DNA from: a virus
Lineage: Duplodnaviria; Caudoviricetes
Virus record (IMG/VR): IMGVR_UViG_2773858002_000001
Location: 27,802 to 91,801 of that record
Length of the DNA: 64,000 nucleotides
Strand: one strand, 5' to 3'
Shown: positions 8,586 through 64,000 of the stretch, piece by piece
How positions within the stretch are numbered: position 1 is the first letter of the stretch
Layout: the number at the start of each line of letters is the position of its first letter
The notes under the pieces: generated by a model
What the model saw: the letters and a program-made list of their open reading frames with translations, nothing else
Told to the model about the DNA's origin: nothing
Databases searched by the model: none
Program-made: the position numbers and the translations under genes

Positions 8586-9208
8586 AGAGGGCCGACCTCT
8601 TCTGGAGATATGGTTGGGGCTTTCAGCAGAACCGCCTTGTGTGCCTCCGCCATGGCTTGCGTGCACAAGGCATCGCACCGTTCGTTGAACTCATTGCCAC
8701 TGTGCCCCTTCACCCACTCAAACTTGACGTCATGCACCTGATATAGCTTGAGCAGTGGCTCCCATAGATCGCGATTGATGACGGTGCCCCCAGACGCGGT
8801 GCGCCAGCCGTTTCGCACCCAATTCCGGCTCCACACCGTGATCCCTTTCACGACGTACTCGCTGTCGCAGAATACCCGGATCGGAACGCCGATCTCAACC
8901 GCCTCCAGTGCCTTGAGGACAGCGGTCATCTCCATCCGGTTGTTCGTCGTGTCGAACGCGTGGCCAACCTGCTCGTCATACTCGCCTGTCGGATGGTGGA
9001 CAGTAAACGCCCAAGCCCCCAGGCCACCCTTGTTCCGATCACAGCCGCCGTCAGTGTGGATCACGATCTCGGACGGGGCCTTCTGAACCGTGCTGGCATG
9101 ATGCACTTCAACCCCGTTCGCCTGAAGCAGTTCGAGGATGGAGTCTCGCACGTGCTCCCCCTCTTCTACCCCGTCAGCTTTGAACTGAAGCAGCAGCTGC
9201 AGGTTCAT
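8582..9208 (-). CDS. rnhA: Ribonuclease HI
   Basis: IHTDGGC, TTNNRMEM.A, DSEYV, NRDLW, WVKGHSG..NERCD. Confidence 0.95.
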   Translation of the reverse strand: MNLQLLLQFKADGVEEGEHVRDSILELLQANGVEVHHASTVQKAPSEIVIHTDGGCDRNKGGLGAWAFTVHHPTGEYDEQVGHAFDTTNNRMEMTAVLKALEAVEIGVPIRVFCDSEYVVKGITVWSRNWVRNGWRTASGGTVINRDLWEPLLKLYQVHDVKFEWVKGHSGNEFNERCDALCTQAMAEAHKAVLLKAPTISPEEVGPL

Positions 9209-9693
9209 TTGTCTGCCCTGCGGATCACCTTGATGGATCGGGAAGACGGCTCGATCTCCAGCACCTCTTCGAGCTGTGGTGGGGTCAGATACTTATCGAG
9301 GTCGCCCAGCTTGAGTTGAGCCAGCTCCATGAAGAGCTTCGCTCCGAGAAACTTCTTGGCCTTCTCTTTGTCCTTGACCGACCGCGAAGTCCCTTTTGCG
9401 CCGGCTTCGAGTCGGAAGACATGCGCAAGCTGCTCGATGGGTGCGTCTTCGTCGGCCTCGATCTCATCCACCTTTGCCTGAAGCTCCTTCAACGCATCCT
9501 TGTAGGGCTTCAGCCGCTCGTTCTCCTTCTTGATGCGCTCAATGACGGGTGCAGCCTCTTCCTGAAGTGTACCCACACGGTCGATCAGTTCGATGATCTC
9601 CGCCATCTCGGGAGAGAACGCTTCGATCTCGCCCAGCTCAGGGGACATTGGCGGCGTATCGACCTTCTTTTTCTTGGTCAGAACAATTGCCAT
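9205..9693 (-). CDS. Hypothetical coiled-coil protein
   Basis: GGAGG RBS; first gene after the promoter at 9728-9777. Confidence 0.7.
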   Translation of the reverse strand: MAIVLTKKKKVDTPPMSPELGEIEAFSPEMAEIIELIDRVGTLQEEAAPVIERIKKENERLKPYKDALKELQAKVDEIEADEDAPIEQLAHVFRLEAGAKGTSRSVKDKEKAKKFLGAKLFMELAQLKLGDLDKYLTPPQLEEVLEIEPSSRSIKVIRRADK

Positions 9694-9727
9694 TTTCAGC
9701 AACCCTCCATGGTTTCCTGTTGATCTA

Positions 9728-9777
9728 ATCCTACCGGTATGGCGTGGCCGGACAAGGATTTTGTGAAATTAATTGCA
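9728..9777 (-). promoter_or_regulatory. Sigma70-like promoter with palindrome 7 nt upstream of -35
   Basis: CTTGTC(9756-9751)-N17-TAGGAT(9733-9728); site at 9764-9777. Confidence 0.72.
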
Positions 9778-9780
9778 CGG

Positions 9781-11055
9781 TCAGAAGAATTGCAGATCAC
9801 CGACGTCCGTTTGCGTCACTTCCGAGAAATCCATTGTCTGGAAGTCCCACGCAGTGATGAACGATCCTGTTTCTCCATTTCGCCCTTTCAACACTTCCAC
9901 CTTACGCTGGTTGAGGGTTTCTACGCTGTCTTCCTGAAAGAGACCGAGCACCAAAGACGACACCTGGGCGATGGCATCGGTGTAGCCAATATCGTCCATG
10001 GTGACTTTCTCGCCCTTCTTCGGGTTCTTCTTGCCTGCCGTTTTCGCGAACTGCCAGCTGCATACCGTCGGGGCGATGGGGGCCAACTCTGACTTGATGA
10101 GCTCGGCGTTCTCGGCAACGCGCCTGTAACGATCCCGCTCCGTGGGGTGCTTCACCAGATAAGCCCCGTCGATGAAGATCGCCGCTGGCTTCAACTGGCG
10201 AGCAAGTGCCCAGATGTCTTCGACGGTCGCCGCCAGATTACCATCCACAACCCAGAACGGAGCTCCATAGTCCTTAATCTCCGCCAGGCCGGCCTTGAGC
10301 ATACTGAGCTTGCCGCTTCCGAGTGCTGACTTCTTCAGGTTTGACGCGGACACGTGTGCTTGCATAGCCGCTAGGCGCTGCTGTATCGGCAACAACCCGA
10401 TCTCCATGCTTACGAACAACCGGGACTGATCAGCTTCGGGGTCGTGGTTCTTGCCAGCTTTTCTCCACCCGTGATGCGCGGCATAGAGCAACTGCCATGT
10501 CTTGCCCGCAGCCGGCCTGCCAACCATGCTTGCAACATCGCCACGAACCAGTCCCCCGGTCAGCTCATCAATGTAGGGCCATCCCATGTGGAGGCCCTTC
10601 TGATCGGTCAGATTGAACTTCGATGCGTATTCCCCGACAACGACCTCATAGGCGTGTCTGAAGTCCACGACCTGCTTCTGCACCCTCTGGCTGGCCAAAT
10701 CCATGACGGCATTCGTCATTACCTCCAAGGCCGACATAACGTCTTTGTTCTCAGGCATGAAAAGATCGCCGGCCTTCTTCATGGCCTTCTTCATCGAAAA
10801 CTCGATGTGCCGGAGCTCCATCAGATCGTGGTAGTAGGCTGAAGGCTCCGAGTGCTGAACCAGCGTGTCGCCCGTGTGAACCTCAATCGTGTCCTCGGTC
10901 GGGAGCGTCTGGTACTCCTTCACAAAATCGCGCACAAATTCGTAGACGCCAATCTCATTGGCTTTGAACAGATGCTCGATCCGCCCGTATTCGAGAAGTG
11001 CTCCCACCGACCCCTCAGCAATGACTGCTGACAGGAACATCTTTCCAATCGACAT
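9781..11055 (-). CDS. dnaB: DnaB-like replicative helicase
   Basis: GRPAAGKT, FVSME, IFIDGAYL, IGYTDAIAQ, LKGRNG. Confidence 0.9.
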   Translation of the reverse strand: MSIGKMFLSAVIAEGSVGALLEYGRIEHLFKANEIGVYEFVRDFVKEYQTLPTEDTIEVHTGDTLVQHSEPSAYYHDLMELRHIEFSMKKAMKKAGDLFMPENKDVMSALEVMTNAVMDLASQRVQKQVVDFRHAYEVVVGEYASKFNLTDQKGLHMGWPYIDELTGGLVRGDVASMVGRPAAGKTWQLLYAAHHGWRKAGKNHDPEADQSRLFVSMEIGLLPIQQRLAAMQAHVSASNLKKSALGSGKLSMLKAGLAEIKDYGAPFWVVDGNLAATVEDIWALARQLKPAAIFIDGAYLVKHPTERDRYRRVAENAELIKSELAPIAPTVCSWQFAKTAGKKNPKKGEKVTMDDIGYTDAIAQVSSLVLGLFQEDSVETLNQRKVEVLKGRNGETGSFITAWDFQTMDFSEVTQTDVGDLQFF

Positions 11056-52305: not shown

Positions 52306-54315
52306 TTATCGACCCAATACCGAGAAGGCGGCAAACTCTGCCGGGACCGCCATTGGCACGTGCTGCATACCTTCTCCGGCTGGTTTGTAGCCTGCCTCAT
52401 GCAGGACCGGGAACATCGCCCACGGCGTGATCGACAAACCATGCAGTTCGTCGGCCCGATCATGCAGAACTTTGGCGATCTCCACACGGAACGGTGTGTC
52501 GTCGTGCTGGTCTCCGAAGCACCTCCCGAGGGCAGCATCCGCATCAGGTATGAACTCGCTAGGCGCTCGCAAGTCCAAGGTCACGTGCTGTCTGCTTGGT
52601 AGATCGGCCACACCGTCGAGGATCGCATTCAGTACGTCCAGATTTCCCCACCAATGCGCGGCCATGATTGTGTGAGGTTTGTCAGCCCCCAGATCGATGG
52701 CGGACGCCTCGCAACACCCAAGCACGTCCATACACCACCCCATCACTGCCGCAATTTCGGGCGCGTCCGAGCTATCGATAACTGGAACTTCCGTGTCTAC
52801 CCAGACCCGTCCCGTGGAACCGTCTATCGTGACCCGCTTCAAATCACTGTACTTGGCATTGTGTTGCAGCCCGGTGATGTCGAGATCAGTGCACCCCACC
52901 ACGCAAGCCTTGTCCATGGCCCGAGCAACCACTGCAGCGTGGCTGGTGGCTCCCCCGGTCTGCGTCAAAATACCAACAGCAGCATTCATGCCGGCAATGT
53001 CATCCGGGGTCGTCTCATGCGTAATCAAGATGCAAGGCTCTTTGCAATTAATTGCATCCTGTGCAGAGAATACGGGGACACCAAAGACAACGCCAGGACA
53101 CGCTGGCAGACCTTCATAATGCGCTGGACCACTGAATGTCGGATCGATGGCGGGCCTGCGTACAATCTTGAACTGGTCGCTCGTCAGGCGCGACCGCGCG
53201 GTCCCTTTGTCGATCACACCTTCCTTCACGAGATCGACCGCAATCTTGAAGGCAGCTCGTGCCGAACGCTTGCCAACACGGCTCTGCAGCAACCACAGCT
53301 TGCCCTGCTGAACGGTGAACTCCAAATCCACCATGTCGTCGTACATCGCTTCCAGATCGGAGCAGAGCGTACAGAACTCCGTGGCCCAAGGCGGGCTCTT
53401 CGTCTCAAAGAGTTCGTCCAGCGAGTATGGTGTTCGAATACCCGCCACCACGTCCTCCCCCTGCGCGTTGTGCAGGTACTCGCCCATCGTGTGGTTCTCG
53501 CCCGTCGAGGGGTCGCGGGTGAACGCCACGCCTGATCCACTGTCGTCGCCCATGTTGCCGAACACCATTGCCTGAATGTTGACGGCTGTGCCCATAGCCT
53601 CATCGATCTTGTTGATCTTGCGATACTCGATAGCACGCTCGTTCATCCAGCTGTCGAAGACGGCCTTCGTGGCAGCCCGTAGCTGTTCCTCTCGGGTCTG
53701 CGGAAACTCGTGTTGCGTGACCGCCTGAAACACCATCTTGTAGCGTTTGATCAGCTCTCGCAGATGGTCTGGGGTCAGATCACCGTCTTCCGACACGCCG
53801 GTGGCGTCTTTGATGTCTTCAAGGTGCTCGTCAAACAGCACCATGGCAACGCCATAAGCTGTGGCTCCGAGCATCTGTATCAGGCGTCGGTAGCTATCGA
53901 GAGCCGCCCGTTCACCGATACGTTCCTCCCACGCCGGCAGCGTCTTGTCCGTCAGGCCGACGTTCAGGATCGTGTCCATCATGCCTGGCATCGAGATCGG
54001 GGCACCCGACCGAACTGATACGAGTGGCGTAAAGCCCATCTCGCCTCTCAGCCATTTGTCGTGTTCCACAATCTCTTCCATCAGCAGATCGATGAAGACA
54101 TCCTTGCTGTTCGCCATCTCGGTCGTATCGTCCGGAGCAGCCATATACTGGTTGCAGACGGCTGTGGTCACCGTGAAGCCGGGGGGCACGGGCATCTCGG
54201 CCTGACACATCTTCACCAAGCCGGCACCCTTGCCACCAAGCAACTTCTTGGCGTCAGACGCGCTGCCGGTCCAGTCGCAGTGGCTCTGGGAGAACCTGAA
54301 AATTCGCTGATCCAC
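52306..54315 (-). CDS. PPDK-like protein (ATP-grasp + phospho-His domains; pyruvate/PEP barrel missing)
   Basis: LLGGKGAGL, VPPGFT, LVSVRSGA..SMPGMMDTILN, AQGEDVVAG, GGATSHAAVVAR; 669 aa with a non-PPDK C-terminus. Confidence 0.9.
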   Translation of the reverse strand: MDQRIFRFSQSHCDWTGSASDAKKLLGGKGAGLVKMCQAEMPVPPGFTVTTAVCNQYMAAPDDTTEMANSKDVFIDLLMEEIVEHDKWLRGEMGFTPLVSVRSGAPISMPGMMDTILNVGLTDKTLPAWEERIGERAALDSYRRLIQMLGATAYGVAMVLFDEHLEDIKDATGVSEDGDLTPDHLRELIKRYKMVFQAVTQHEFPQTREEQLRAATKAVFDSWMNERAIEYRKINKIDEAMGTAVNIQAMVFGNMGDDSGSGVAFTRDPSTGENHTMGEYLHNAQGEDVVAGIRTPYSLDELFETKSPPWATEFCTLCSDLEAMYDDMVDLEFTVQQGKLWLLQSRVGKRSARAAFKIAVDLVKEGVIDKGTARSRLTSDQFKIVRRPAIDPTFSGPAHYEGLPACPGVVFGVPVFSAQDAINCKEPCILITHETTPDDIAGMNAAVGILTQTGGATSHAAVVARAMDKACVVGCTDLDITGLQHNAKYSDLKRVTIDGSTGRVWVDTEVPVIDSSDAPEIAAVMGWCMDVLGCCEASAIDLGADKPHTIMAAHWWGNLDVLNAILDGVADLPSRQHVTLDLRAPSEFIPDADAALGRCFGDQHDDTPFRVEIAKVLHDRADELHGLSITPWAMFPVLHEAGYKPAGEGMQHVPMAVPAEFAAFSVLGR

Positions 54316-54399: not shown

Positions 54400-54906
54400 T
54401 TAATGTCGTCGTTTATTGTACAGCCCCTGCAAGGCTGCGCGCACATGCAGAGAGCCCGCTTCCTTCTTCCAGCGTGCCTGTTCGATCCTCCAGATTGCCC
54501 CCTCCCCATCAACGTCCTTGTTCTCGTCTTCGATGTCAGACATCAGCAATAGAGACACGAGCACGGCCTGATTTGTTCGGTCGTCAAGGAACCCCTCGTC
54601 CACCAGGGACAAGCAGAACATCGCACAGACGTAGAGGCCGTGCCTGGGGTCGTCTGGCGACAGATCGTGCAGGAGGTTCTTTGCCGCGTCATCTATCCGC
54701 TTCGCCAATCGTGCGACAGAGAACTGATCGAGTTTCGCGAGAGGGCTCGCCGCTGCAACATTCAGCTTGTGCATCACGTCAGCGCGCAGCTCGACACCGA
54801 TCTTCTGGCATTCCTCCATCATCAAAAACATCATGTGCGCGGGCAATGCGTTCTCCACCACGAGCTGGTCACGCTCACGAATGTCAAACAATCCTTCGGC
54901 GTTCAT
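54400..54906 (-). CDS. Hypothetical helical protein
   Basis: ORF downstream of the terminase; start inferred at MNAEG. Confidence 0.65.
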   Translation of the reverse strand: MNAEGLFDIRERDQLVVENALPAHMMFLMMEECQKIGVELRADVMHKLNVAAASPLAKLDQFSVARLAKRIDDAAKNLLHDLSPDDPRHGLYVCAMFCLSLVDEGFLDDRTNQAVLVSLLLMSDIEDENKDVDGEGAIWRIEQARWKKEAGSLHVRAALQGLYNKRRH

Positions 54907-55069
54907 CTTTCTCAACCTTTCTTGTAAGCCCCCACTCCGCAGCGAGGGCGTCAACTTCGATCTCGGTATCGACGCTGTAACGTTTCGTCACGTATCGGAT
55001 GCCACGTTCGTCCAGCGCGTCCTCAAAACCCCGCAGCGCCGTGTCGCTCCACGAGCGGTATCTAGCCAT
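54884..55069 (-). CDS. Small hypothetical protein
   Basis: ATG overlaps the TerL end. Confidence 0.5.
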   Translation of the reverse strand: MARYRSWSDTALRGFEDALDERGIRYVTKRYSVDTEIEVDALAAEWGLTRKVEKDERRRIV

Positions 55070-56942
55070 CGACCATTTCCTCGAAATCCATGCCGGCCCC
55101 CTTCTTGATCTTGGTGGCCTGCTCCGGTTCCTTTCGATGCTGCACAGCCAACGGCACCTGGTGCATTGGGACGCCATAGCGGAGCCATATCTCGCGAAGG
55201 ATCGTCAGGCCGTAGACCACGCCAGCCATGCTGTCCGACACGTCCTTTGAGCCGTGCGGCGGGTGATCGATGATCCCCTTCTTTGTATCAATCTCCAGGG
55301 ACACCATCTCACCTTGCGCCTTGGGATGCTCAGGTGCTTGCACTCGGGCGTCATAGAACGCTTGCTTCGTAAAATCGTAGGCGTCCGTGTCCTTGTCCAT
55401 CGACTGGTAATGGACGATGAAGCCCTTCTGGTAGAGGATTTGCATACTGTCGCGGCTCTGAAAGCCGTCGAAACTCACCCATTTGATCGGCAAGCCCATC
55501 TTGTCCCGGAGCACGTAGAGCAGCTTACGCACGTTCGAAAGCTCTATCTCGCCTCCGACAGGCACCTTGACCTCCAGCACGAGGTCAAACCGTATGATCG
55601 GGAGCATTTCCGTGTGATCGCCGCGATTGCACTTTTTGAACCCCACCACGTGGCCGATACTGACCCCCGCACTATCCTTCGAGTAGGCCAAGTCGATATG
55701 AGCCAGGCGCGGCTCCATGGGATTGACGATGCGTTTCGGGTAGAGCTTCAGCTTCGTGGTGACGAAATCCACATCATCGCGTGATGCGATAGACGGCACG
55801 ACGCCAAAGCAGGCCGCGACAGCTTCGGTGTTCAGCATGAACGGGTGCAGTGCAAGTGTCGCTACGCCGGCAATATCCCGAAGGGCAGCAAGCATGTCCG
55901 TTTCGAACTGCTTCTTGTACTCCAACGGAACGCGCATCACGAGATGGGCATCCTGCTCGGGCACAACTGCCTCGTCATCCAGGATATAAGGTTTCCGGGT
56001 CTGGTCTCCGACGAATATGCGGAACCGGTCCTGCGTAAACTTTTCAGGCCGAACTTCCCAAACCCTTTTGTCGTAAATGAAGATGCGCGGGTTCGTTCGA
56101 GCCTCTTCCTCCTTCTTGTCGGTGAATTGCCCCGGATAGTTGCGCGACGACACCAGGCACAGCATCCCAGGCAGAGACCCAAGTTGCATGAAGCGGCTCT
56201 CACGACGGCGGGCGATAGAGTTGTAGTTCTTGACCGCCTGATCGTAGATTTCGCCGTCTTTCGACTGCTTCGAGTTTTCGACAACCGCCATGAAGTTGAT
56301 TTCGTCAATCAACCCCCCGATCACGTTCTGGCCGATTGCACCCGTATCCTGTCCGCTGATCGGCTTTACAATGATCCGCTTGGGGAAGCGCATCTCACTG
56401 GTGATGTCTGTGTCGAAAGCGAAATGCGCCTTAAAGTACGGCGCACTCTCGATCATCGCGCGAAACCGCGTGTAATCGACGCCGGCAGCAAGGTTCTTGT
56501 TCAGCGACTGGAACACGATGACGATTTCTGACGTCGGGTCCAGGTCAAATTCGGCGTGCGGGTCGCGCATGCAAGAGAGCAGGTAGAGCTGGTACGCCTG
56601 AGTGTAGAGCGCGAGGTGCGTCTTACCGACGCCGATGCCGCCCGTCAGCACGCTTTCAACGTACTTTCCGCTGTTAAGTTCTTCGAACTCCCGCATGACA
56701 AGCGGCCACATTGCCGTGGGCTTGTTCATGTAGGCTTCGCCCTCGATAAACTCGCGAGGGCTGACCGGTTCGTGTTTGAAACGTATCAGCCTTTTGAGCG
56801 CGTCGGGATTGGCTGCCGCCTCCTTTAGAAACGACATCACCACGTCCAGGTCTTCGGGGTAGTCGTTGGCGACTTCCGTCCAAAGCTCTTGTGCCACCTC
56901 ATCAAGTACCGATTGAGGAACCTTACGTGCCTTCCCCACCAT
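55062..56942 (-). CDS. terL: Terminase large subunit
   Basis: GGIGVGKT Walker A, GLIDEINF Walker B, nuclease HIDLA / SFDGFQS / KDVSDS. Confidence 0.9.
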   Translation of the reverse strand: MVGKARKVPQSVLDEVAQELWTEVANDYPEDLDVVMSFLKEAAANPDALKRLIRFKHEPVSPREFIEGEAYMNKPTAMWPLVMREFEELNSGKYVESVLTGGIGVGKTHLALYTQAYQLYLLSCMRDPHAEFDLDPTSEIVIVFQSLNKNLAAGVDYTRFRAMIESAPYFKAHFAFDTDITSEMRFPKRIIVKPISGQDTGAIGQNVIGGLIDEINFMAVVENSKQSKDGEIYDQAVKNYNSIARRRESRFMQLGSLPGMLCLVSSRNYPGQFTDKKEEEARTNPRIFIYDKRVWEVRPEKFTQDRFRIFVGDQTRKPYILDDEAVVPEQDAHLVMRVPLEYKKQFETDMLAALRDIAGVATLALHPFMLNTEAVAACFGVVPSIASRDDVDFVTTKLKLYPKRIVNPMEPRLAHIDLAYSKDSAGVSIGHVVGFKKCNRGDHTEMLPIIRFDLVLEVKVPVGGEIELSNVRKLLYVLRDKMGLPIKWVSFDGFQSRDSMQILYQKGFIVHYQSMDKDTDAYDFTKQAFYDARVQAPEHPKAQGEMVSLEIDTKKGIIDHPPHGSKDVSDSMAGVVYGLTILREIWLRYGVPMHQVPLAVQHRKEPEQATKIKKGAGMDFEEMVDG

Positions 56943-57558
56943 GATCGATAACCTTCATGCGCTGATCGATCAGTTCGGACATGCGCTGTGCGAGAGCCAT
57001 GAGGCGGTCTTGCTGGGCCACCTTCCGCGTGAACTCTGCGCCCCCATCGTCTGTGGTGCCGATGTGCGCGATCACCTTCGGAGTCAGGCCAAGCAGCTCC
57101 GAACGGTGCTCATGTACTTTCAAGATCGAGTTTAGATAACCAAGTGGAGCCTGTGGGCTCGTCTTCTCATCCAGGTTGGTCAGGCGGGACCAGAGTTCGC
57201 TTTCAATGAGGTCCAGGCGGGCAAGCCCTTCGCCGCGATGCCGAGCGAAATCCTGCGTCGTTCCGAAGACCTCCCATCGTGCATGTACCCGCCTGATATA
57301 GCGATCCATTGCACGCCCGTCGTTGATGTCCAGAAGGGCCATAAGCTGCCGCTTGTTGCGTACGCCCTTCATCATCATGAGTTCGACACGAGCCACCTGC
57401 TGCTCGTCGTACTCCTGAGCCTCGCCGTTGGTGCGGTCGTACTGTGGACTCTCAGGAACTTCCACGCGGTTAGGTAGGGTGGCGCGTTCCTCCAAGGGAA
57501 GGCGCTCCCTAACCTTCTTCAGATCGACCCTCTTCCGCCTGATCTTGACCTTGGACAT
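56923..57558 (-). CDS. Putative terminase small subunit
   Basis: HTH-like helical protein overlapping the TerL start. Confidence 0.6.
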   Translation of the reverse strand: MSKVKIRRKRVDLKKVRERLPLEERATLPNRVEVPESPQYDRTNGEAQEYDEQQVARVELMMMKGVRNKRQLMALLDINDGRAMDRYIRRVHARWEVFGTTQDFARHRGEGLARLDLIESELWSRLTNLDEKTSPQAPLGYLNSILKVHEHRSELLGLTPKVIAHIGTTDDGGAEFTRKVAQQDRLMALAQRMSELIDQRMKVIDHGGEGT

Positions 57559-58460
57559 CAGCTCTTCTTCGCCGCCGCCTGTTTCTTCGCCTCCTTCGCC
57601 TCAGCGTCGTTGGCGAGCTTGTCGTAGATTTTCGCGTGGGCAGCCTTAGCGATCTCGGCCTGCTTGTCCTTGGGCAATGCGTTGAAAGTCTCGCAGATCA
57701 CCGCAAGCGCGACGTTGCGCAGCTTTGCCCCGGCAATGCCCATGGCAGCTTTCATGGCATTGTCGTAGCTGGCGACCTCATGACCGATCAACGCGGTAAC
57801 GTCATCACCTGCGATCTTCATGGCCTTCTTCATGGCCGTCGTATATGCGGAGTGCTCATCCGGCAGCAGAAGCAGGTTCACAGAGATCGGACGCTCGACG
57901 TCCTGGGCTGTCATCTTGATGCCGTCTGACGGGTTGAAATCCGGCACCTGCAGAAGCTTCAGGACCGATGTTTGTTCATCCTCACCGATACCGGTCATCG
58001 CCCGGATTTCCTGGGAGCTGTAATCGTTGTGTAGATCAACAAGCAGCCGCGCCAATTTGATGGGAATATTCTGTCCGCGCAGATTGTTCATCGAAAGCGT
58101 GCGAACCTTCGCCCGCTTGTCGTCAAACGGAACGACGATGATCGGGATCACCTTCTTACCGGCGACCTTCGAAGCTCGCCAACGGTGCTCGCCGTCAACG
58201 ATCAGGAACTTGCCCTCCTGTTCGGGATTGAGGCGGCAGAGGATGGGCTGGTTCATGCCCTCTTCCTTCACCTGTTGGACAATAGCCTCGAAGAACTCGG
58301 CCTCCATGTCGTTCGGGTTGTACTCGTTCGGCTCGACGTCATCGATTGGAACGACACGAAAGTCGATGCTCTCGTCCATGGCCTCCGGGCTAGCGTCGGC
58401 CTGTGCAATTAATTGCGCATTCGTCTCAGATTTCTTCGGCTTCTTCAGGTTCAGTGCCAT
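57558..58460 (-). CDS. ParB/Srx-like N-terminal domain protein
   Basis: PNEYNPN, G..QPI, IVDGEHRWRA, MNNLRG. Confidence 0.88.
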   Translation of the reverse strand: MALNLKKPKKSETNAQLIAQADASPEAMDESIDFRVVPIDDVEPNEYNPNDMEAEFFEAIVQQVKEEGMNQPILCRLNPEQEGKFLIVDGEHRWRASKVAGKKVIPIIVVPFDDKRAKVRTLSMNNLRGQNIPIKLARLLVDLHNDYSSQEIRAMTGIGEDEQTSVLKLLQVPDFNPSDGIKMTAQDVERPISVNLLLLPDEHSAYTTAMKKAMKIAGDDVTALIGHEVASYDNAMKAAMGIAGAKLRNVALAVICETFNALPKDKQAEIAKAAHAKIYDKLANDAEAKEAKKQAAAKKS

Positions 58461-59313
58461 CATCGCCCTCCGTGGTGCGTAGCATTTCAGGTGTCATGCG
58501 CTTGGCGTCGAGCTGGTCGGACAGCCGGTAGCGCGAGGGATCAATCTGTATCGTAGAGCCGACAGAAAGCGACGACATGCGAGCTTTAAGCCAACGTTCA
58601 CGCCAGTAGTCGATTTGATCGGCCAGGGTGAACGTGGCGGTCTTGCCGTAAGCGTCGGTCTCGCCCCGAAGGAACGGGACCGCTTTCTTCCGCAGTTCCA
58701 TACCATAAAAGCCGTGATCGGTTTCATCAACATCAATCAGCTGTACGCCGCGCTGATGAAGTCGGTTGTACTGACTGCCTTTGCCGTGGAGTGTGCGGAT
58801 GCCGAAGAACAGGTACTGATAGCTGTAACGCAGCTCCAAAAGGCGAATGACGTCTCGGCTCGTAGCGGCCAGAGCAAGGAGCTTTCCGCCCGTCATCTGA
58901 CCGAACTCGAACACGGGAAGGCACCGCCGCATCATCACGACCCTGTGCTGGTTCGCTAGGCGCAGGTGCTCGTGCTCTTTGTGCCACCCCAAATGGTCTA
59001 TCAGCTGCGTCCAGTGGTTCGGTGGGTCCGACAGACCCACGACACCTAAGAAGCCGCCAGACACACGGTCTCGCACGAGCAAGGCAAGTGACCGGCCTGC
59101 CCCGGCAAAGTGCGGTGACTGCGGCTCCGACGAGAGCACCACACGCCAGTAATCAAAGAGGTCACGAGCCAGCCCTTTGTCCACTACGACGACCTCCGGA
59201 TCGAACGTCGCAAGGTCTACTGGAACGCACATGCGAAGAGCCTGGTGTTCGACGTCACAAAGCCTTCGCAACCACTTGTTCTGTGTCTTGATCTTGTCGA
59301 TTGGTGCCGGCAT
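58426..59313 (-). CDS. DUF4338/DruA-like GNAT-fold protein
   Basis: GR.L..LVRD...G.FLG...L, LGW, GGKLLAL...S, HGKGSQYNRL; TGATG coupling. Confidence 0.7.
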   Translation of the reverse strand: MPAPIDKIKTQNKWLRRLCDVEHQALRMCVPVDLATFDPEVVVVDKGLARDLFDYWRVVLSSEPQSPHFAGAGRSLALLVRDRVSGGFLGVVGLSDPPNHWTQLIDHLGWHKEHEHLRLANQHRVVMMRRCLPVFEFGQMTGGKLLALAATSRDVIRLLELRYSYQYLFFGIRTLHGKGSQYNRLHQRGVQLIDVDETDHGFYGMELRKKAVPFLRGETDAYGKTATFTLADQIDYWRERWLKARMSSLSVGSTIQIDPSRYRLSDQLDAKRMTPEMLRTTEGDDGTEPEEAEEI

Positions 59314-60365
59314 CAGTCCCTCCGAAGCAGGATGAGGCCCGCCCTTCGCGTGTCCGATCCGTGCCACGGGAACGACCACTCCTTGATCGTCGGACCGACC
59401 TTGGCGAACACCTCTTCTTTCCCTTCCTCCCAACTCACAGCGCCATCACCAACAAAGCTGAAAACGTAATGCCCGCTCGGGATATGGGCCACCGTGTCGA
59501 GGATCAACGAGCGCCACAGGTCTCCTGGCATGTCGCCTTCATCGAGTGCTTGCTGCTCATTGAAGAGTAGGGTGTCGAGCACACGGTTCGACTGCATGAA
59601 AGTCGCGTTGCCGGCAGTCGGCGGGTTCAGGCCGACGAAGCTCGGGCGGTCGAAGTCGATCTGCTTGATGTTCTCCCGGCAGTCTCCGACCATCACCTTG
59701 GGGACGCGCTCCATCTTGGCGGATTGGAGAGCGTGGATCAGGTGATCGACATCCTGCGCCACCTTGAGCAGCGCCGGCAGCGGCTCCAGGAGTATCTTCG
59801 CCACGTTCTCCCACTGTTTGCCCTGCAGGGACAGCTGCTGAAGGTCTTGGGTGGGAAGCTTCAGGAAGTACATGTAGTTCTTGTTCAGAAGCACCCAGCG
59901 CACGGCCATGAAGCGGTAAAACGCCGCCTGCCCCGGCACCAGATCACCGCGTTCCGAGGCGTAGTACAACGCGTCAAAGATAGCCGCCGCTATCGGGTGT
60001 AGGTGGTCGGGGATCAGCTCACCAGCCGGGGTCTTGCCTTCGGGGACCAGCTCTTCTGGGGTCTTCTCCTGCGCGAGCCGAAGCAGTCCTTCGATCACCC
60101 AGCGCCGCGACCGCACTTCGCCAAAGATCGCCTGCGCCGACACGTAGGACCGGAGCGCCAGGTCGTTGGCCGAGACGGACATGCCGTAGAAGCCGAACGC
60201 CGCCGACCCGGCACAGCTTCCGCAGGTCATGTCGTGGTAGCTCCACTTGTGCCACTCCGACATCGGAACGACGGACTGAGCCGCATCAAACAGAAAAGGG
60301 ATGAAGCGCCTCATCCCTCCGAGAAAGGGCAGAAGCCCCTTCGAAATAACATCGAAGCTGTTCAT
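59313..60365 (-). CDS. Divergent D12/Dam-class methyltransferase-like protein
   Basis: PFLGGMRR, HDMTCGS, ANDL, GDC, and NPPT in place of DPPY; ATGA coupling. Confidence 0.6.
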   Translation of the reverse strand: MNSFDVISKGLLPFLGGMRRFIPFLFDAAQSVVPMSEWHKWSYHDMTCGSCAGSAAFGFYGMSVSANDLALRSYVSAQAIFGEVRSRRWVIEGLLRLAQEKTPEELVPEGKTPAGELIPDHLHPIAAAIFDALYYASERGDLVPGQAAFYRFMAVRWVLLNKNYMYFLKLPTQDLQQLSLQGKQWENVAKILLEPLPALLKVAQDVDHLIHALQSAKMERVPKVMVGDCRENIKQIDFDRPSFVGLNPPTAGNATFMQSNRVLDTLLFNEQQALDEGDMPGDLWRSLILDTVAHIPSGHYVFSFVGDGAVSWEEGKEEVFAKVGPTIKEWSFPWHGSDTRRAGLILLRRD

Positions 60366-61300
60366 CTCTTCACCGTGTAGAAAGCAATCTTTTGGGCAAC
60401 GAGACGATCCTTCCACTCCCGGATCGTCTTGGTGTCAGCAGTGCCGTCGTTCTCCAGAGCAAGCCTCCCGAAAAGGTGAGCCATCTCCTGGTAGCCAAGC
60501 ATGTTGGCGTGCTTGACAGGAGCGTTCCGGTCAAATCTCTGCGTGTACGCGGTCCAGTGCATGTCCGTCAGCTGACACGCCATGTTGAGTGAAATTAATT
60601 GCGCATCGTGTCGAACACCGATGCAGCCGAGGTCGGGCACCGCATGCTGCAACGCAGTCCAGTTCTCCAACAACCAGTCGATACTGGTCTTGTCATATGT
60701 CCTAAACTTCAGGTCTGTGTTCTGGCGATACCAAGTCTTCACCAGCGCCTTGTATTCATCGGCTTGAGCCTGATGGTAGACCTCGATCTCGCACAGGCGT
60801 TTCGCCTTGTTCACGTTCCCTCGCATCTGCCGGTTTCTCTTCCCTGGAAACGTCTGAACGTCCTCGGTCCGCATCACGTACTCTTCGTGCTGCTTCGAAA
60901 CCGAATAACCGCCCTTCTTGATGTGCAAGGCTATAGGTTCGGGGACGAGGGCGAGTTCACGCCCCTTTTCAAGACGGTGAACAACGGTCTGGTAGTAGTC
61001 TGTTGCAGACCCTGTGGGGATCACCCGGTCAACGTTGTCGTCTGCGAGAATGACGCCACCGCTCCCCTCGACCACCTGAAGCTTACCCAACGCGATCTTC
61101 GGCAGAGCGTTCAGAGGGGAAAACGCGAAAGCAGGTGCCCCGCAGGACACCATGGCTTCACGCATTGCTGGTAGCGCTTCTATGTAAATTTGGAGCGGGC
61201 GGCTCTCTTCGATGAGGCTACCTCTCCGGGAAGGAGAGGACCGGACCTTACCGGCACCCGCGTTGTTCTTTCGTTCTGCCACAGCTCGACCCTTCGTCAA
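60362..61300 (-). CDS. DUF2156/MprF-C-like aminoacyl-tRNA-dependent GNAT transferase
   Basis: EYVMRTEDVQTFPGKRNRQMRGNVNK and C-terminal N.G.AD...IREWK pattern; no TM domain. Confidence 0.6.
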   Translation of the reverse strand: MTKGRAVAERKNNAGAGKVRSSPSRRGSLIEESRPLQIYIEALPAMREAMVSCGAPAFAFSPLNALPKIALGKLQVVEGSGGVILADDNVDRVIPTGSATDYYQTVVHRLEKGRELALVPEPIALHIKKGGYSVSKQHEEYVMRTEDVQTFPGKRNRQMRGNVNKAKRLCEIEVYHQAQADEYKALVKTWYRQNTDLKFRTYDKTSIDWLLENWTALQHAVPDLGCIGVRHDAQLISLNMACQLTDMHWTAYTQRFDRNAPVKHANMLGYQEMAHLFGRLALENDGTADTKTIREWKDRLVAQKIAFYTVKR

Positions 61301-61797
61301 ACCCCGAGATCGCCTTGCGACTTCATGGTGGACGCAAACTCAGGCCAGACGACTTCCGCGATGACCTTTGGTTCGTACTCACGAGCATCGACCAGGCTGC
61401 CATCCCGCATGATGTGTGTGGTCTTGACGTCCGGTCTCTCCCGGTGGAGCCACGCGGTCAGCTTGCCGGCACGGTGACACTCACAAGGCTTTCCTTCAGA
61501 GCACATCATCGCAACCCGGTGCCCTTCCTCGGTAAATTGGAGGATCGTATCCATCTTGCTGACAAAGAGTCTGGACGTGACCTGCACGTTTCCCAAGCCG
61601 CCAAGCACGTTGCCTCCGAACCGATAATCAACTCCGTTCTGCCTCACGGCTCGGATCAGATTGTCTCTTTGAAAATGCGCGAAGCGCGAATGGGGCCTCG
61701 AACGAACATCTACAAGCATCGAAATCTCGTGCTGCTTCAGCAGTCCGAGAAAGGTCTCAAAGGAATGGTTCGAGTGACCGATTGTCCAGACTTCCAC
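61297..61797 (-). CDS. DUF488 family protein
   Basis: TIGHSNHS, LVDVRSRP.S, LGG, MCSE..P..CHR. Confidence 0.9.
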   Translation of the reverse strand: MEVWTIGHSNHSFETFLGLLKQHEISMLVDVRSRPHSRFAHFQRDNLIRAVRQNGVDYRFGGNVLGGLGNVQVTSRLFVSKMDTILQFTEEGHRVAMMCSEGKPCECHRAGKLTAWLHRERPDVKTTHIMRDGSLVDAREYEPKVIAEVVWPEFASTMKSQGDLGV

Positions 61798-61867
61798 TGC
61801 ATTCTCCTTATTTCGGTGGTCCGCCCTAGTCTAACGAAGAAGCGTGGCCTAACACACAGAAATCGTT

Positions 61868-62317
61868 CTATTTTTCGAGGATAGCAGGTTGCGGCCCTCG
61901 GGCTTGATCCTGATACTTTCCGCCGTACACAGCCTCGGCTGGTCGGTCGAGAACATGGAAGATGATCTGGGCGATGGCTGTCCCATCTTCGACCACGATC
62001 CTCTCTTTGCCGTGATTTGTAAGCTCCAGGGTCAGATACCCCCTCCAGCCCGGTTCGATTACCGTGTTCTGGGCTGCCAGTCCGAGCCGTGCCCACGTGC
62101 TCTTATCGTGCACAATCCCCAGCAGGTCGTGCGGCATTGAGAAATGCTCAAGCGTGGAGGCGAGAGCGAACGCTCCGGGTTCCAGAACGACTTTTTGATC
62201 CACCCGCACATCGTAGCCAGCAGGACCGAGGCCGTAGGTCAGGCCGTTGTATTTGGTCCGCTCCGAAAAGGGGTAGAAGATGCCACGCTCACGAATGCTG
62301 ACGCCGCTGAGGATCAT
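61868..62317 (-). CDS. dcd: dCTP deaminase
   Basis: YGL..AGYDVR, DKSTWARLGL, TVIEPGWRGYLTLE, Y.GKYQ.Q. Confidence 0.9.
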   Translation of the reverse strand: MILSGVSIRERGIFYPFSERTKYNGLTYGLGPAGYDVRVDQKVVLEPGAFALASTLEHFSMPHDLLGIVHDKSTWARLGLAAQNTVIEPGWRGYLTLELTNHGKERIVVEDGTAIAQIIFHVLDRPAEAVYGGKYQDQARGPQPAILEK

Positions 62318-62661
62318 GTGTAGCTCCTGACGTCGAGTTCCCGGTGCTGGATTTCTACGACATGCCCCAGCCGGCGCAGCTTCACAGCAAGCATCTCGGC
62401 CATAGCCACGGACCTATGCCGTCCGCCGAAGCATCCGAAGGCAACCGAACCGCCCTCCACAGCACCAGCAAGCGCAAAGTCCTGCAGCCTGTCGAATGAG
62501 AAGTCTGTTTTCACATACCGCTGCACCTTCCCGTCGAGACCCGTCAGTCTCTTGAGCTCGGGAACGTTGTGTGGGTTTTTCATCGAGCGACAATCAACGA
62601 TCAGCGCTGCGTCGTGTGGCTGACCGTACTTGAAGCCGAAAGAAATTAATTTCACAGTCAT
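62314..62661 (-). CDS. Stand-alone RapZ C-terminal domain protein
   Basis: SFGFKYG.P, D.R...NP, LTGLD..V, GC.GGRHRSV..AE, HREL. Confidence 0.85.
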   Translation of the reverse strand: MTVKLISFGFKYGQPHDAALIVDCRSMKNPHNVPELKRLTGLDGKVQRYVKTDFSFDRLQDFALAGAVEGGSVAFGCFGGRHRSVAMAEMLAVKLRRLGHVVEIQHRELDVRSYT

Positions 62662-62665
62662 GCGA

Positions 62666-63190
62666 TTACCATTCCCAATGTGGCAGTTCTTCGATCACAG
62701 GGGCGTCCCGGTCGAACATGATCCAGTCACAACCGAAGCTGACGGCTAGCTTGATAGCCTCTTCCAGCTCAGTAGGAACCTCGTTCGGATGGAGAGGATC
62801 GTCCATTGTCGTCGTGTGGACCCACCAGCCGTATTTGCCCTTTTCAAACACCGTGACACCGTAGATTGTGTCCTCGCTGAGCCTCTTGGCGGTCTCTGAG
62901 GTGACATGCGAAGTGCTGATGGCCAACATCTTCTCGGTCTGCGAATGAAAGACCTGTGTCGTCGCATCGAAGCCGTGCTTCTGAAGAACCTGAATTGCCA
63001 TCTTCACTTCTGAAGTCGGATCAAGATGCTTCAGAGCCTCCAGCCAAGCCGTGGCCTTCTGAACCACGTCCTGTTCCCATTCGGTCGGGGGCTCATCAAT
63101 CAACGTGTTCTCGTCTGCCGTCTCAATGAACGTTTGCGCCATACCAACGACATGCCTCAGCTCATTGAATGTCGGTTCGGTGACGATCAC
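62666..63190 (-). CDS. DUF5983-like protein
   Basis: ISTSHV, YGWWV, GCDWIMFDRDA....LP.W.W; GTG start with AAGGAGG RBS. Confidence 0.65.
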   Translation of the reverse strand: MIVTEPTFNELRHVVGMAQTFIETADENTLIDEPPTEWEQDVVQKATAWLEALKHLDPTSEVKMAIQVLQKHGFDATTQVFHSQTEKMLAISTSHVTSETAKRLSEDTIYGVTVFEKGKYGWWVHTTTMDDPLHPNEVPTELEEAIKLAVSFGCDWIMFDRDAPVIEELPHWEW

Positions 63191-63207
63191 GGTGCCCTCC
63201 TTGGCAA

Positions 63208-63253
63208 TGCAATTAATTTCACTCACTCTAACAGATGATCGCCGGCTAGCAAG
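63208..63253 (-). promoter_or_regulatory. Sigma70-like promoter with palindrome over the start site
   Basis: CTTGCT(63253-63248)-N17-TAGAGT(63230-63225); site at 63208-63221, 3 nt downstream of the -10. Confidence 0.72.
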
Positions 63254-63254
63254 G

Positions 63255-63557
63255 TCATGCAAGTGTGATTGTGAGAATACGAGCTGCCGCAAGTTTTGAT
63301 CGACGCTCGGCAGAAAATGCATCTCGGTTCTCGACCCGTAGGCTTCCTGGGATCAACCCTTTCTGTATGGCCTCCAACTCGTAGCCAAGGAACCCGAGCA
63401 AGGTTTCCATGACACCGATGTCTCCCGAAGTCTCGCCGCTTTCGATCTTCCTGAGAGTGGACCGGTTCACGCCGGTTTGGGATGAAAGCGTCCGCTGCGA
63501 GATGTTCTGTTCCTCGCGCAAAGCCTTAATTAGCTCCCCCCAGAAATTGCCGTCCAT
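63255..63557 (-). CDS. XRE-family HTH transcriptional regulator
   Basis: IKALREEQNISQRTLS..TGVNRSTLRKIESG. Confidence 0.9.
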   Translation of the reverse strand: MDGNFWGELIKALREEQNISQRTLSSQTGVNRSTLRKIESGETSGDIGVMETLLGFLGYELEAIQKGLIPGSLRVENRDAFSAERRSKLAAARILTITLA

Positions 63558-63574
63558 GTACCGCCTCGCACTGG

Positions 63575-64000
63575 TTAGGCGACAGCATGTTCATACACCA
63601 CGGAAACGACGTTGGCCCTGAGCTTCCTCAATACATCACGGGCCACCTTATTGTCTGGGTGGACCGGCACATACACTGTAGAGACGCCCGTAGTCCGTGC
63701 CCTGTCGTGCAGGGTTTTGAACATTTCCGTGAACGCATGCTGCTGTCTGCTTGATGGTTCGACGTAACCGAGGGTGACTTCAAAAGCGTCCTTGTCGGCG
63801 TGATGCTCCCAGGTCAGTACGCCCACGACATCGCCATCCACACTGACCGCGTAGATGACCTCCGAGTTCGCACTGACGGGGCATGTGCCGACGAGATCAG
63901 GGGTGTACCCTTCCTGAACGAGCTCGTTCCAGCCTTCTGCAATGAGTGCAAAGGCTTTGGTGCTCGCCGCTCGGCGGCTGTATCCGATCTGAACGCCCAT
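63575..64000 (-). CDS. GNAT acetyltransferase (start at window edge)
   Basis: DGDVVGVL, YVEPSSRQQH, VHPDNKVA..L.KL. Confidence 0.8.
   Translation of the reverse strand: MGVQIGYSRRAASTKAFALIAEGWNELVQEGYTPDLVGTCPVSANSEVIYAVSVDGDVVGVLTWEHHADKDAFEVTLGYVEPSSRQQHAFTEMFKTLHDRARTTGVSTVYVPVHPDNKVARDVLRKLRANVVSVVYEHAVA

Follow-up and report, generated by a model that had tools for sequence, protein, structure and literature searches.

The Mom protein of phage Mu is a GNAT that moves glycine from Gly-tRNA onto the N6 position of adenine in double-stranded DNA, and it defines the DNA-modifying GNATs that use a charged tRNA (PMC13219725). For a subclass of phage thymine dioxygenases, action on double-stranded DNA depends on a cognate ParB (PMC13229309). 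That a phage GNAT modifies DNA by way of a charged tRNA and that phage ParBs activate DNA-modifying enzymes were both established only in 2026, and the gene cassette that is the subject of this article unites the two themes. The cassette lies in a 64,000-nucleotide stretch of DNA, called the window below, which comprises bases 27802-91801 of a Caudoviricetes genome (IMG/VR record IMGVR_UViG_2773858002_000001); IMG/VR classes the 91.8-kb record as a provirus and estimates its completeness at 93%. The cassette genes encode, in this order, a DUF488 protein, a DUF2156-like protein, a methyltransferase-fold protein resembling the D12-class DNA-adenine methyltransferases (D12-like), a GNAT of the DruA/DUF4338 type (DruA-like) and ParB, and they are followed by genes for a putative small terminase (TerS) and the large terminase (TerL). 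We propose, with our confidence evenly balanced, that the genes from DUF488 to ParB are a ParB-assisted cassette for post-replicative hypermodification of DNA bases, expressed together with the late packaging genes. The proposal draws on the conservation of the module, on gene fusions, on a methyltransferase fold descended from D12 enzymes, on a GNAT fold like that of Mom and on the published ParB-dependent phage enzymes.

The closest described systems resemble the cassette in part. With Mom (PDB 8BV8; PMC13219725) it shares a phage GNAT that would be expressed late and act after replication on double-stranded DNA; Mom is the top structural match of the DruA-like protein, and the cassette also includes a member of a tRNA-dependent transferase family. 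However, Mom works alone, whereas the cassette GNAT is always accompanied by ParB and DUF488, and usually by further enzymes, and the two GNATs have no significant sequence similarity. As with the 5mYOX176/ParB176 thymine dioxygenases (PMC13229309), which are cognate pairs that often lie near terminase genes and decorating enzymes, an orphan phage ParB adjoins a candidate DNA-modifying enzyme. In this case, however, the genome has no TET/JBP dioxygenase, it is a GNAT that adjoins ParB, and dependence on ParB is suggested only by analogy. The cassette would belong to a known kind, the phage operons that modify DNA after replication and include a GNAT as well as a ParB partner, but the enzyme set is undescribed as far as our searches reach. 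The preliminary description of this DNA had not recognized the enzyme combination, and the module is likewise not described in the four papers found to mention DUF4338. A megablast search of GenBank phages with the cassette gave no match, and neither the DruA-like nor the D12-like protein had a tblastn match in 50,697 GenBank phage records. The new elements are a three-gene core, a minimal locus, the range of accessory genes, a swap of cassettes at one slot with a switch of ParB, an NPPT clade of Dam-like proteins and a caveat that comes from restriction-site avoidance.

Loci were gathered from IMG/VR, metagenome-assembled genomes (MAGs) and metagenomes with D12-like and DruA-like probes, and they were scored with local hidden Markov models. 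More than 10 independent contigs, either viral or from MAGs and with GC contents of 36-71%, show the gene order again, so the genes do occur together elsewhere, as the neighborhood search proposed in the preliminary description was meant to establish. The complete order DUF488-DUF2156-D12-like-DruA-ParB-TerS-TerL is kept in L006-L009, L018 and L030/L031 at 37-96% protein identity, and its persistence in independent contigs at such identities indicates that it is not due to chance. L006/L017, L008/L019 and L009/L021 have this order as in the window, and L018 has the same order in a contig that begins inside the DUF2156 gene.

Other loci vary this theme. A ThyX-like gene is added between DruA and ParB in L015; an Amidoligase_2 gene plus the gene of a Methyltransf_23 protein take the place of the D12-like gene in L013; two Spermine_synth-like genes separate DruA from ParB in a 15-kb Logan contig; L020, which is missing the D12-like gene, carries a pair of DUF2156 paralogues; and L022 is a minimal locus that consists only of DUF488-DruA-ParB. 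The prophage L010-L012, which lies in a bacterial contig of 338 kb and has a Mu-type portal, carries DUF488, a fused D12-like::DruA gene (protein P0048), a metallopeptidase gene and ParB, followed by presumed terminase genes. Because DUF488, the DruA-GNAT and ParB are present in every complete locus, they form the invariant core. The DUF2156 gene occurs in most loci, is duplicated in L020 and is absent from L022 and L010; it and the methyltransferase-fold gene are dispensable accessories (L022, L020, L013, L010). The preliminary description had placed a step dependent on S-adenosylmethionine (SAM) and an aminoacyl or acyl transfer at the center of the system. Comparative genomics backs the DNA-modification function that this implied, but moves the center to the three core genes. 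The terminase genes come after ParB in all loci with enough flanking sequence, except L015, and this pre-terminase position is fixed across phages with differing head modules. We count the accessory genes (Amidoligase_2 plus Methyltransf_23, the Spermine_synth-like pair, ThyX-like, the second DUF2156 and the metallopeptidase) in favor of DNA modification, since enzymes of these types are known from hypermodification pathways. The three-gene form in L022 and the accessory-rich loci also provide a natural series for reconstitution.

Gene fusions tie the same families together. P0048 is a clean fusion of a D12-like domain, with the motif DPPTY, to DruA, and DruA is fused to ParB_N in an ESM Atlas cluster of 235 mostly phage proteins. 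ParB-DUF488-HTH fusions have been found to bind CTP (bioRxiv 10.1101/2025.10.10.680097). In addition, a 695-amino acid siphovirus protein annotated as an amidoligase enzyme contains a region that matches the DruA-like model. One further candidate was rejected: P0030, a metagenomic protein of 634 amino acids and the only longer DruA homologue returned, looked like a D12-like::DruA fusion, but it is a frameshift artefact in which an Arg-rich nonsense stretch after ...SLNP runs into the DruA gene.

The slot before ParB holds something entirely different in related phages. By tblastn, the window TerL, which has no Pfam match, shares 50-60% of its residues, across 87-98% of its length, with the annotated terminases of Rhodobacter phage RcZahn, Stenotrophomonas phages Summit, DLP_3 and DLP_5, and Rhizobium phage RHph_TM16. 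This identity bears out the earlier assignment of TerL and shows that the element is related to these siphoviruses, whose genomes are 95-101 kb long. In RcZahn and TM16, the slot between a RapZ-like gene and ParB-hypothetical-TerL encodes a deacetylase, a dehydratase, an aminotransferase, a methyltransferase and a glycosyltransferase. In Summit, this sugar/glycosyltransferase cassette stands immediately before ParB. RcZahn and TM16 both keep the RapZ-like gene, which delimits the variable slot on its upstream side. Thus, these phages share with the window the genomic slot and a related backbone, but they differ in having another enzyme set and another ParB subfamily, and in the absence of DUF488 and DruA. 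Between the window and RcZahn, the protein identity is 60% for TerL, 57% for a PPDK-like protein and 41% for RapZ_C, but only 24% for ParB. The fall in ParB identity where the enzyme set differs means that ParB changes together with the enzymes, as would be expected of a cognate partner. If the DNA is indeed modified, this would explain why ParB subfamilies switch with the enzyme cassettes before phage terminases. A search for TET/JBP homologues in RcZahn, TM16 and Summit found none. The sugar cassette in the slot before ParB of these cultured relatives (L002-L005) is uncharacterized. The PPDK-like gene is common to the window, RcZahn and TM16 (49-57% identical); its product is without the phosphoenolpyruvate (PEP)/pyruvate-binding domain, and the gene lies downstream of TerL in RcZahn, TM16 and the cassette loci, irrespective of the cassette type.

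The DruA-like protein matches Pfam PF14236 (E-value 3.9e-11, 43.1 bits versus a cut-off of 27) over residues 72-210 of the long open reading frame (ORF) and contains the motif A-like sequence FGQMTGGK. Its AlphaFold (AF2) model, with a mean confidence (pLDDT) of 90.8, is a GNAT with helical extensions at the N- and C-termini, and every top row of a Foldseek search with this model is a GNAT. The top row in VIA is Mom itself (8bv8_A; Z 10.4, root-mean-square deviation 3.6 Å, 158 residues). DUF4338 was read as a GNAT independently by Aravind and colleagues (PMC10853773). In PHROGs, the protein receives only a marginal match to phrog_19197, a family of unknown function (E-value 1.9e-4), and PDB sequence and profile searches with the DruA-like, D12-like and DUF488 proteins returned chance-level rows only. 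Distant phage homologues of DruA sit in replication/recombination modules. The DruA family is common in viruses in the ESM Atlas, where it also has giant-virus and IS4-transposase architectures, and the best structural matches to the DruA-like model in BFVD are giant-virus proteins. Among species-representative genomes, only two have a DruA-like match, both of them 96-kb MAG contigs. The Escherichia coli protein YeaO belongs to DUF488, and a preprint that pairs YeaO with CRISPR spacers derived from insG, an IS4 transposase gene, suggests that YeaO may regulate InsG. Given YeaO/InsG and the IS4 transposases with a DruA domain in the Atlas, the connection between DUF488 and DruA may be wider than phages.

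The methyltransferase-fold protein has no match in Pfam (including PF02086), NCBIfam or PHROG. Nevertheless, its AlphaFold model (pLDDT 87) has a class-I methyltransferase fold, as the preliminary description had supposed. The top Foldseek matches are Mcbe1, DpnM and E. coli Dam; a literature search on Mcbe1 gave nothing useful. In VIA-align, amino-methyltransferases reach Z values of 12-13.4, and the longest alignments (221-229 residues, Z 11.9-12.5) are with DpnM and Dam and have the D12 domain layout. Close relatives are few, with 24 found among 5.8 billion proteins, and an exhaustive profile search gave 86 relatives in 1.84 billion representatives, the more distant of which carry PF02086. 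The protein thus has in common with the D12-class enzymes Dam and DpnM (PF02086) the fold, the domain layout, motif X (LPFxGG), the glycine-rich part of motif I and an acidic motif II (ANDL). It differs from them in motif I, which is HD-x-T-C-G-S (TxGS rather than FxGxG), and in motif IV, which is NPPT rather than DPPY. Both altered motifs are invariant in the alignment of the close family, and in a joint alignment the PF02086 relatives retain DPPY and D-x-F-x-G-x-G, while the window clade has NPPT and D-x-T-x-G-S throughout. Since the nearest Pfam-positive relatives are PF02086 proteins with DPPY, the sequences indicate that the protein is a derived branch of the D12 DNA-adenine methyltransferases that has lost the motif I Phe and the aromatic residue of motif IV, which stacks on the flipped base. 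Such a protein might be inactive, have room for a bulkier base or put SAM to a different use.

The DUF488 protein matches PF04343 (E-value 1.5e-12, 48.6 bits versus a cut-off of 22.2). The residues that are invariant in its alignment, GH(S), D-x-R, P-x-S, C99, E101, C107-H108-R109 and H128, include Cys, His, Glu and Arg, which points to an enzyme or to a metal site. The DUF2156-like protein is above the cut-off for PF09924 (E-value 6.2e-9, 35.8 bits versus 27.5), a family of GNAT-fold transferases that depend on aminoacyl-tRNA. It also has a weak profile match to a DUF2156 structure, PDB 2hqy (E-value 0.013). These two matches connect it with the C-terminal domain of MprF and with FemX-type enzymes (PF09924), with the difference that only the central part of the window protein matches; its putative use of tRNA is read from the family. 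Its conserved domain begins at about residue 35, and with only 312 amino acids there is no room for the large membrane domain of MprF. Its Atlas neighbors fall into phage clusters, and PF09924 is present in only 10-30% of their members. PHROGs had no match for the D12-like, DUF2156 or DUF488 proteins.

ParB is recognized by PF02195 (5e-16) and by TIGR00180 (1.2e-19), the latter covering only positions 6-124 of 186. Its Box II arginine motif, GEHRWRA, is kept, and G91, H93 and R94 are invariant. It is the sole ParB of the genome and an orphan; a search for a ParA-type AAA_31 match in the genome found none, as would be needed for a canonical ParABS system. The protein is 48-89% identical to the ParBs of the cassette loci, 32% identical to that of L010 and 18-24% identical to those of RcZahn, TM16 and Summit.

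The genes and all of their junctions were recovered by ORF calls and by direct reading of the sequence (Table 1), so the chain of overlapping genes from DUF488 to TerL reported in the preliminary description stands. The junctions read ATGA at 60362-60365, TGATG at 59313 and at 57558, and TTGA at 61297-61300; ParB and the DruA-like gene overlap by 38 nt and TerL and the 211-amino acid ORF by 20 nt. The domain calls for DUF488, DUF2156, DUF4338, ParB and DCD were also sound, each being above its Pfam cut-off or significant. A dcd-like gene does lie just upstream of DUF488, from which it is separated by a 70-bp spacer that carries an AAGGAG ribosome-binding site. Its product is well supported (PF22769, 9.3e-25; TIGR02274, 111.5 bits versus a cut-off of 92.8; phrog_1663, 6.7e-49). 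However, the gene is present in L006, L008/L019, L020 and L022 and absent in L009/L021, L013 and L015; it is a facultative companion of the cassette rather than an integral member. A promoter and terminator scan of positions 54900-63700 found nothing above chance, and the absence of an internal sigma-70-like promoter fits a single late transcription unit. The proposed link to DNA packaging agrees with the position beside the terminase genes in a late operon, but nothing beyond position speaks for it. Nearly all long ORFs of the window are on the minus strand.

Table 1. Genes of the cassette and its surroundings; positions are those of the window.
Feature	Position	Strand	Basis and remarks
PPDK-like protein (669 aa)	52306-54315	-	PPDK_N and PEP-utiliser mobile domain
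TerL (626 aa)	55062-56942	-	Homology to annotated terminases
211-aa basic ORF, putative small terminase	56923-57558	-	Position only
ParB (301 aa)	57558-58463	-	PF02195
DruA/DUF4338-type GNAT (295 aa)	58426-59313	-	PF14236; ATG at 59313
Methyltransferase-fold protein (350 aa)	59313-60365	-	Predicted fold; ATG at 60365
DUF2156/LPG_synthase_C-type protein (312 aa from TTG)	60362-61300	-	PF09924
DUF488 protein (166 aa)	61297-61797	-	PF04343; GTG start behind AAGGAG
dCTP-deaminase/dUTPase-fold protein, dcd-like (149 aa)	61868-62317	-	PF22769
Stand-alone RapZ C-terminal domain protein (115 aa)	62314-62661	-	PF22740 (5e-30); upstream of dcd
DUF5983 protein	62666-63322	-	Upstream of dcd

How might such a cassette work? 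By analogy with the published systems, the orphan ParB would be a DNA-bound clamp or activator that opens the double-stranded phage DNA of late infection to the DruA-GNAT, and the GNAT would put an acyl or aminoacyl group on an exocyclic base amine. The N6 position of adenine would be the likeliest target, because the GNAT has a partner of D12 DNA-adenine methyltransferase descent, to which it is fused in one relative, and because its own fold resembles Mom. The DUF2156 enzyme would then add an amino acid from a charged tRNA to the adduct, the NPPT protein might flip the enlarged base, to which it would then attach a methyl or another SAM-derived group, and DUF488 would be the obligatory third component of the core. 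The product is predicted to be a sequence-specific rather than a global mark that helps the phage evade some host nucleases or labels the DNA as its own. In its most specific form, the core of DUF488, DruA-GNAT and ParB would be a ParB-guided machine that acylates DNA bases, and in the window the tRNA-dependent transferase and the Dam-like enzyme would extend the product to an as yet undescribed aminoacyl or peptidyl, possibly methylated, adenine. This last version is tentative, and we rather doubt that all of it is right. If ParB-guided acylation is true, it would provide both DUF488 and the Druantia DruA domain with their first biochemical activity. DNA modification by the cassette would add a new base chemistry and would reveal what three orphan families do, namely DruA/DUF4338, DUF488 and the NPPT clade among the Dam-like proteins.

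Several observations weigh against DNA modification, and the modified base itself is an unproven prediction from the genes alone. One concerns restriction sites. In the whole 91.8-kb genome, the observed/expected ratio is below 0.2 for 15 of 49 palindromic hexamers and for 10 of 3288 non-palindromic ones. Eight palindromes, each expected in 13-42 copies, are absent (GTCGAC, CTCGAG, AGATCT, GGATCC, AGGCCT, CCCGGG, GGCGCC and GGGCCC), and six others (CGGCCG, CGATCG, CCGCGG, GGTACC, GATATC and AGTACT) have only 1-3 copies each. Further hexamers depleted genome-wide are AGATCC/GGATCT (RGATCY), GAGGAG/CTCCTC and ACTGGG/CCCAGT; those at their expected frequency include GACGTC, CTGCAG and GAGCTC, and CCATGG is likewise not avoided. 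Such strong avoidance suggests that the phage DNA is still exposed to many type II enzymes. It argues against a global protective hypermodification and implies that any modification is probably sequence-specific or serves another purpose. The resemblance to Mom is also shared, with Kre33/NAT10, FeeM and Naa60 trailing Mom at Z 9.6-9.8 in VIA; as Mom is tied within 1 Z with many GNATs, its likeness is a lead and not proof. A comparison by hhalign of the DruA-like alignment A2 with Mu Mom was not significant (probability 0.1, E-value 0.54), and counterparts of the catalytic residues R111 and S124 of Mom could not be placed in the DruA-like protein. In addition, the methyltransferase-fold protein could be catalytically dead, given its changed motifs I and IV, and the Pfam match of the DUF2156-like protein is partial (residues 119-199, profile positions 80-167 of 298). 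Finally, GNATs, amidoligases and spermine-synthase-like enzymes occur just as typically in pathways that modify proteins or small molecules.

This last point leads to the rival explanations. The cassette might modify a protein or make a small molecule, with the methyltransferase-fold protein serving as a separate DNA methyltransferase or as an adaptor. The GNAT, the tRNA-dependent transferase and the amidoligase-like or aminopropyl-transferase-like enzymes would then acylate ParB, TerS or a host DNA-binding protein or tag it with a peptide, or they would produce a modified polyamine for packaging together with the DNA. Naa60, RimI, the spermidine acetyltransferase SpeG, FeeM and acyl-homoserine lactone synthases are all within Z 1.5 of Mom, relatives carry two Spermine_synth-like genes or an Amidoligase_2 gene, and a position beside the terminase would suit a packaging cofactor. 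We nevertheless regard this explanation as unlikely, because P0048 and the DruA::ParB fusions bind the GNAT to DNA-handling domains, the D12-class relatives are DNA-adenine methyltransferases, and the distant phage DruA homologues noted above belong with replication and recombination genes. A quite unlikely alternative is a conflict module that leaves no covalent mark on DNA, acting as a decoy or inhibitor of Druantia-like systems or in prophage exclusion, where ParB and DUF488 would sense foreign DNA and the GNAT would be the effector. Type I Druantia includes DruA among its components, and the window protein is above the cut-off for its Pfam family (PF14236, DUF4338). Two further matches speak for such a role, namely a weak match of the DruA-like protein to the PADLOC DruA models (5.5e-6) and a match of DUF488 to the PADLOC candidate-system model PDC-M45B (3e-30), the latter being also a point against DNA modification; a literature search on PDC-M45 gave nothing useful. 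DUF488 is also reported close to prophages and defence islands (bioRxiv 10.1101/2024.05.24.595836), and the IMG/VR provirus class would agree with such a role. However, the locus differs from Druantia type I in having no DruB-E genes; no DruE-type MZB/DUF1998 helicase domain (PF09369) was found in the 91.8-kb record, and no other cassette protein matches a PADLOC Druantia model. Moreover, the cassette overlaps with ParB, TerS and TerL and has no promoter-like site of its own, which makes it look like part of a late lytic operon and not a moron, its position before the terminase is fixed whatever the head module, and relatives have the sugar/glycosyltransferase cassette in the same site instead.

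The most ordinary arrangement would be one anti-restriction DNA methyltransferase and a packaging-associated ParB, with the DUF488, DUF2156 and DruA-like genes as unrelated passengers. ParB-methyltransferase pairs and fusions are common in phages, and P0040, a protein of the NPPT clade, is encoded directly before a ParB in a locus without a DruA gene. Yet passengers would hardly keep their order and co-occurrence in more than 10 contigs with GC contents from 36% to 71%, the fusions connect all four families, and it is the methyltransferase-fold gene that is dispensable (L022, L020, L013) and not part of the core; we judge this explanation very improbable. A pathway based on 5-hydroxymethyluracil or 5-hydroxymethylcytosine was considered for the slot and dropped, since searches of the genome for TET/JBP, ThyX and ThyA homologues found none; a pyrimidine-C5 route is thus not apparent in this genome. 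No tRNA genes were found in the genome either.

The 211-amino acid basic protein is a putative small terminase. The preliminary description had called it TerS, and its place between ParB and TerL is right for this; homologues occupy the same place in L006-L009, L013, L018, L020, L022 and L024. However, it has no Pfam, NCBIfam or PADLOC family match and only one marginal PHROG match. A short basic N-terminus of the form M-x-[ILV]-x-[ILV]-K/R-rich starts both ParB (MMALNLKKPKK) and the 211-amino acid protein (MSKVKIRRKRV), and it recurs in their homologues in L006, L008 and L009.

A 14-bp palindrome, TGCAATTAATTGCA, occurs with its one-base variants in 50 copies in the 91.8-kb genome (positions 1046-63211 of the window). 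Two copies of this type are within the cassette, at 60593 (inside the DUF2156 gene) and at 58407 (the DruA/ParB junction). The palindrome is abundant in the genome, L006 and L009, and L023 was grouped with the latter two for this observation. It was considered as a parS-like site of the window ParB, but this is unsupported because it is absent from L013, L015, L020, L022 and L031, whose ParBs belong to the same subfamily. Single variants with unchanged arms, TGCAAATATTTGCA and TGCAACTAGTTGCA, are found in L018 and L022. In L009 (positions 9011-9993), and also in L021 and L023, about 1 kb of sequence unlike the window TerL interrupts TerL within one long open frame; this insertion is possibly an intein or a homing element.

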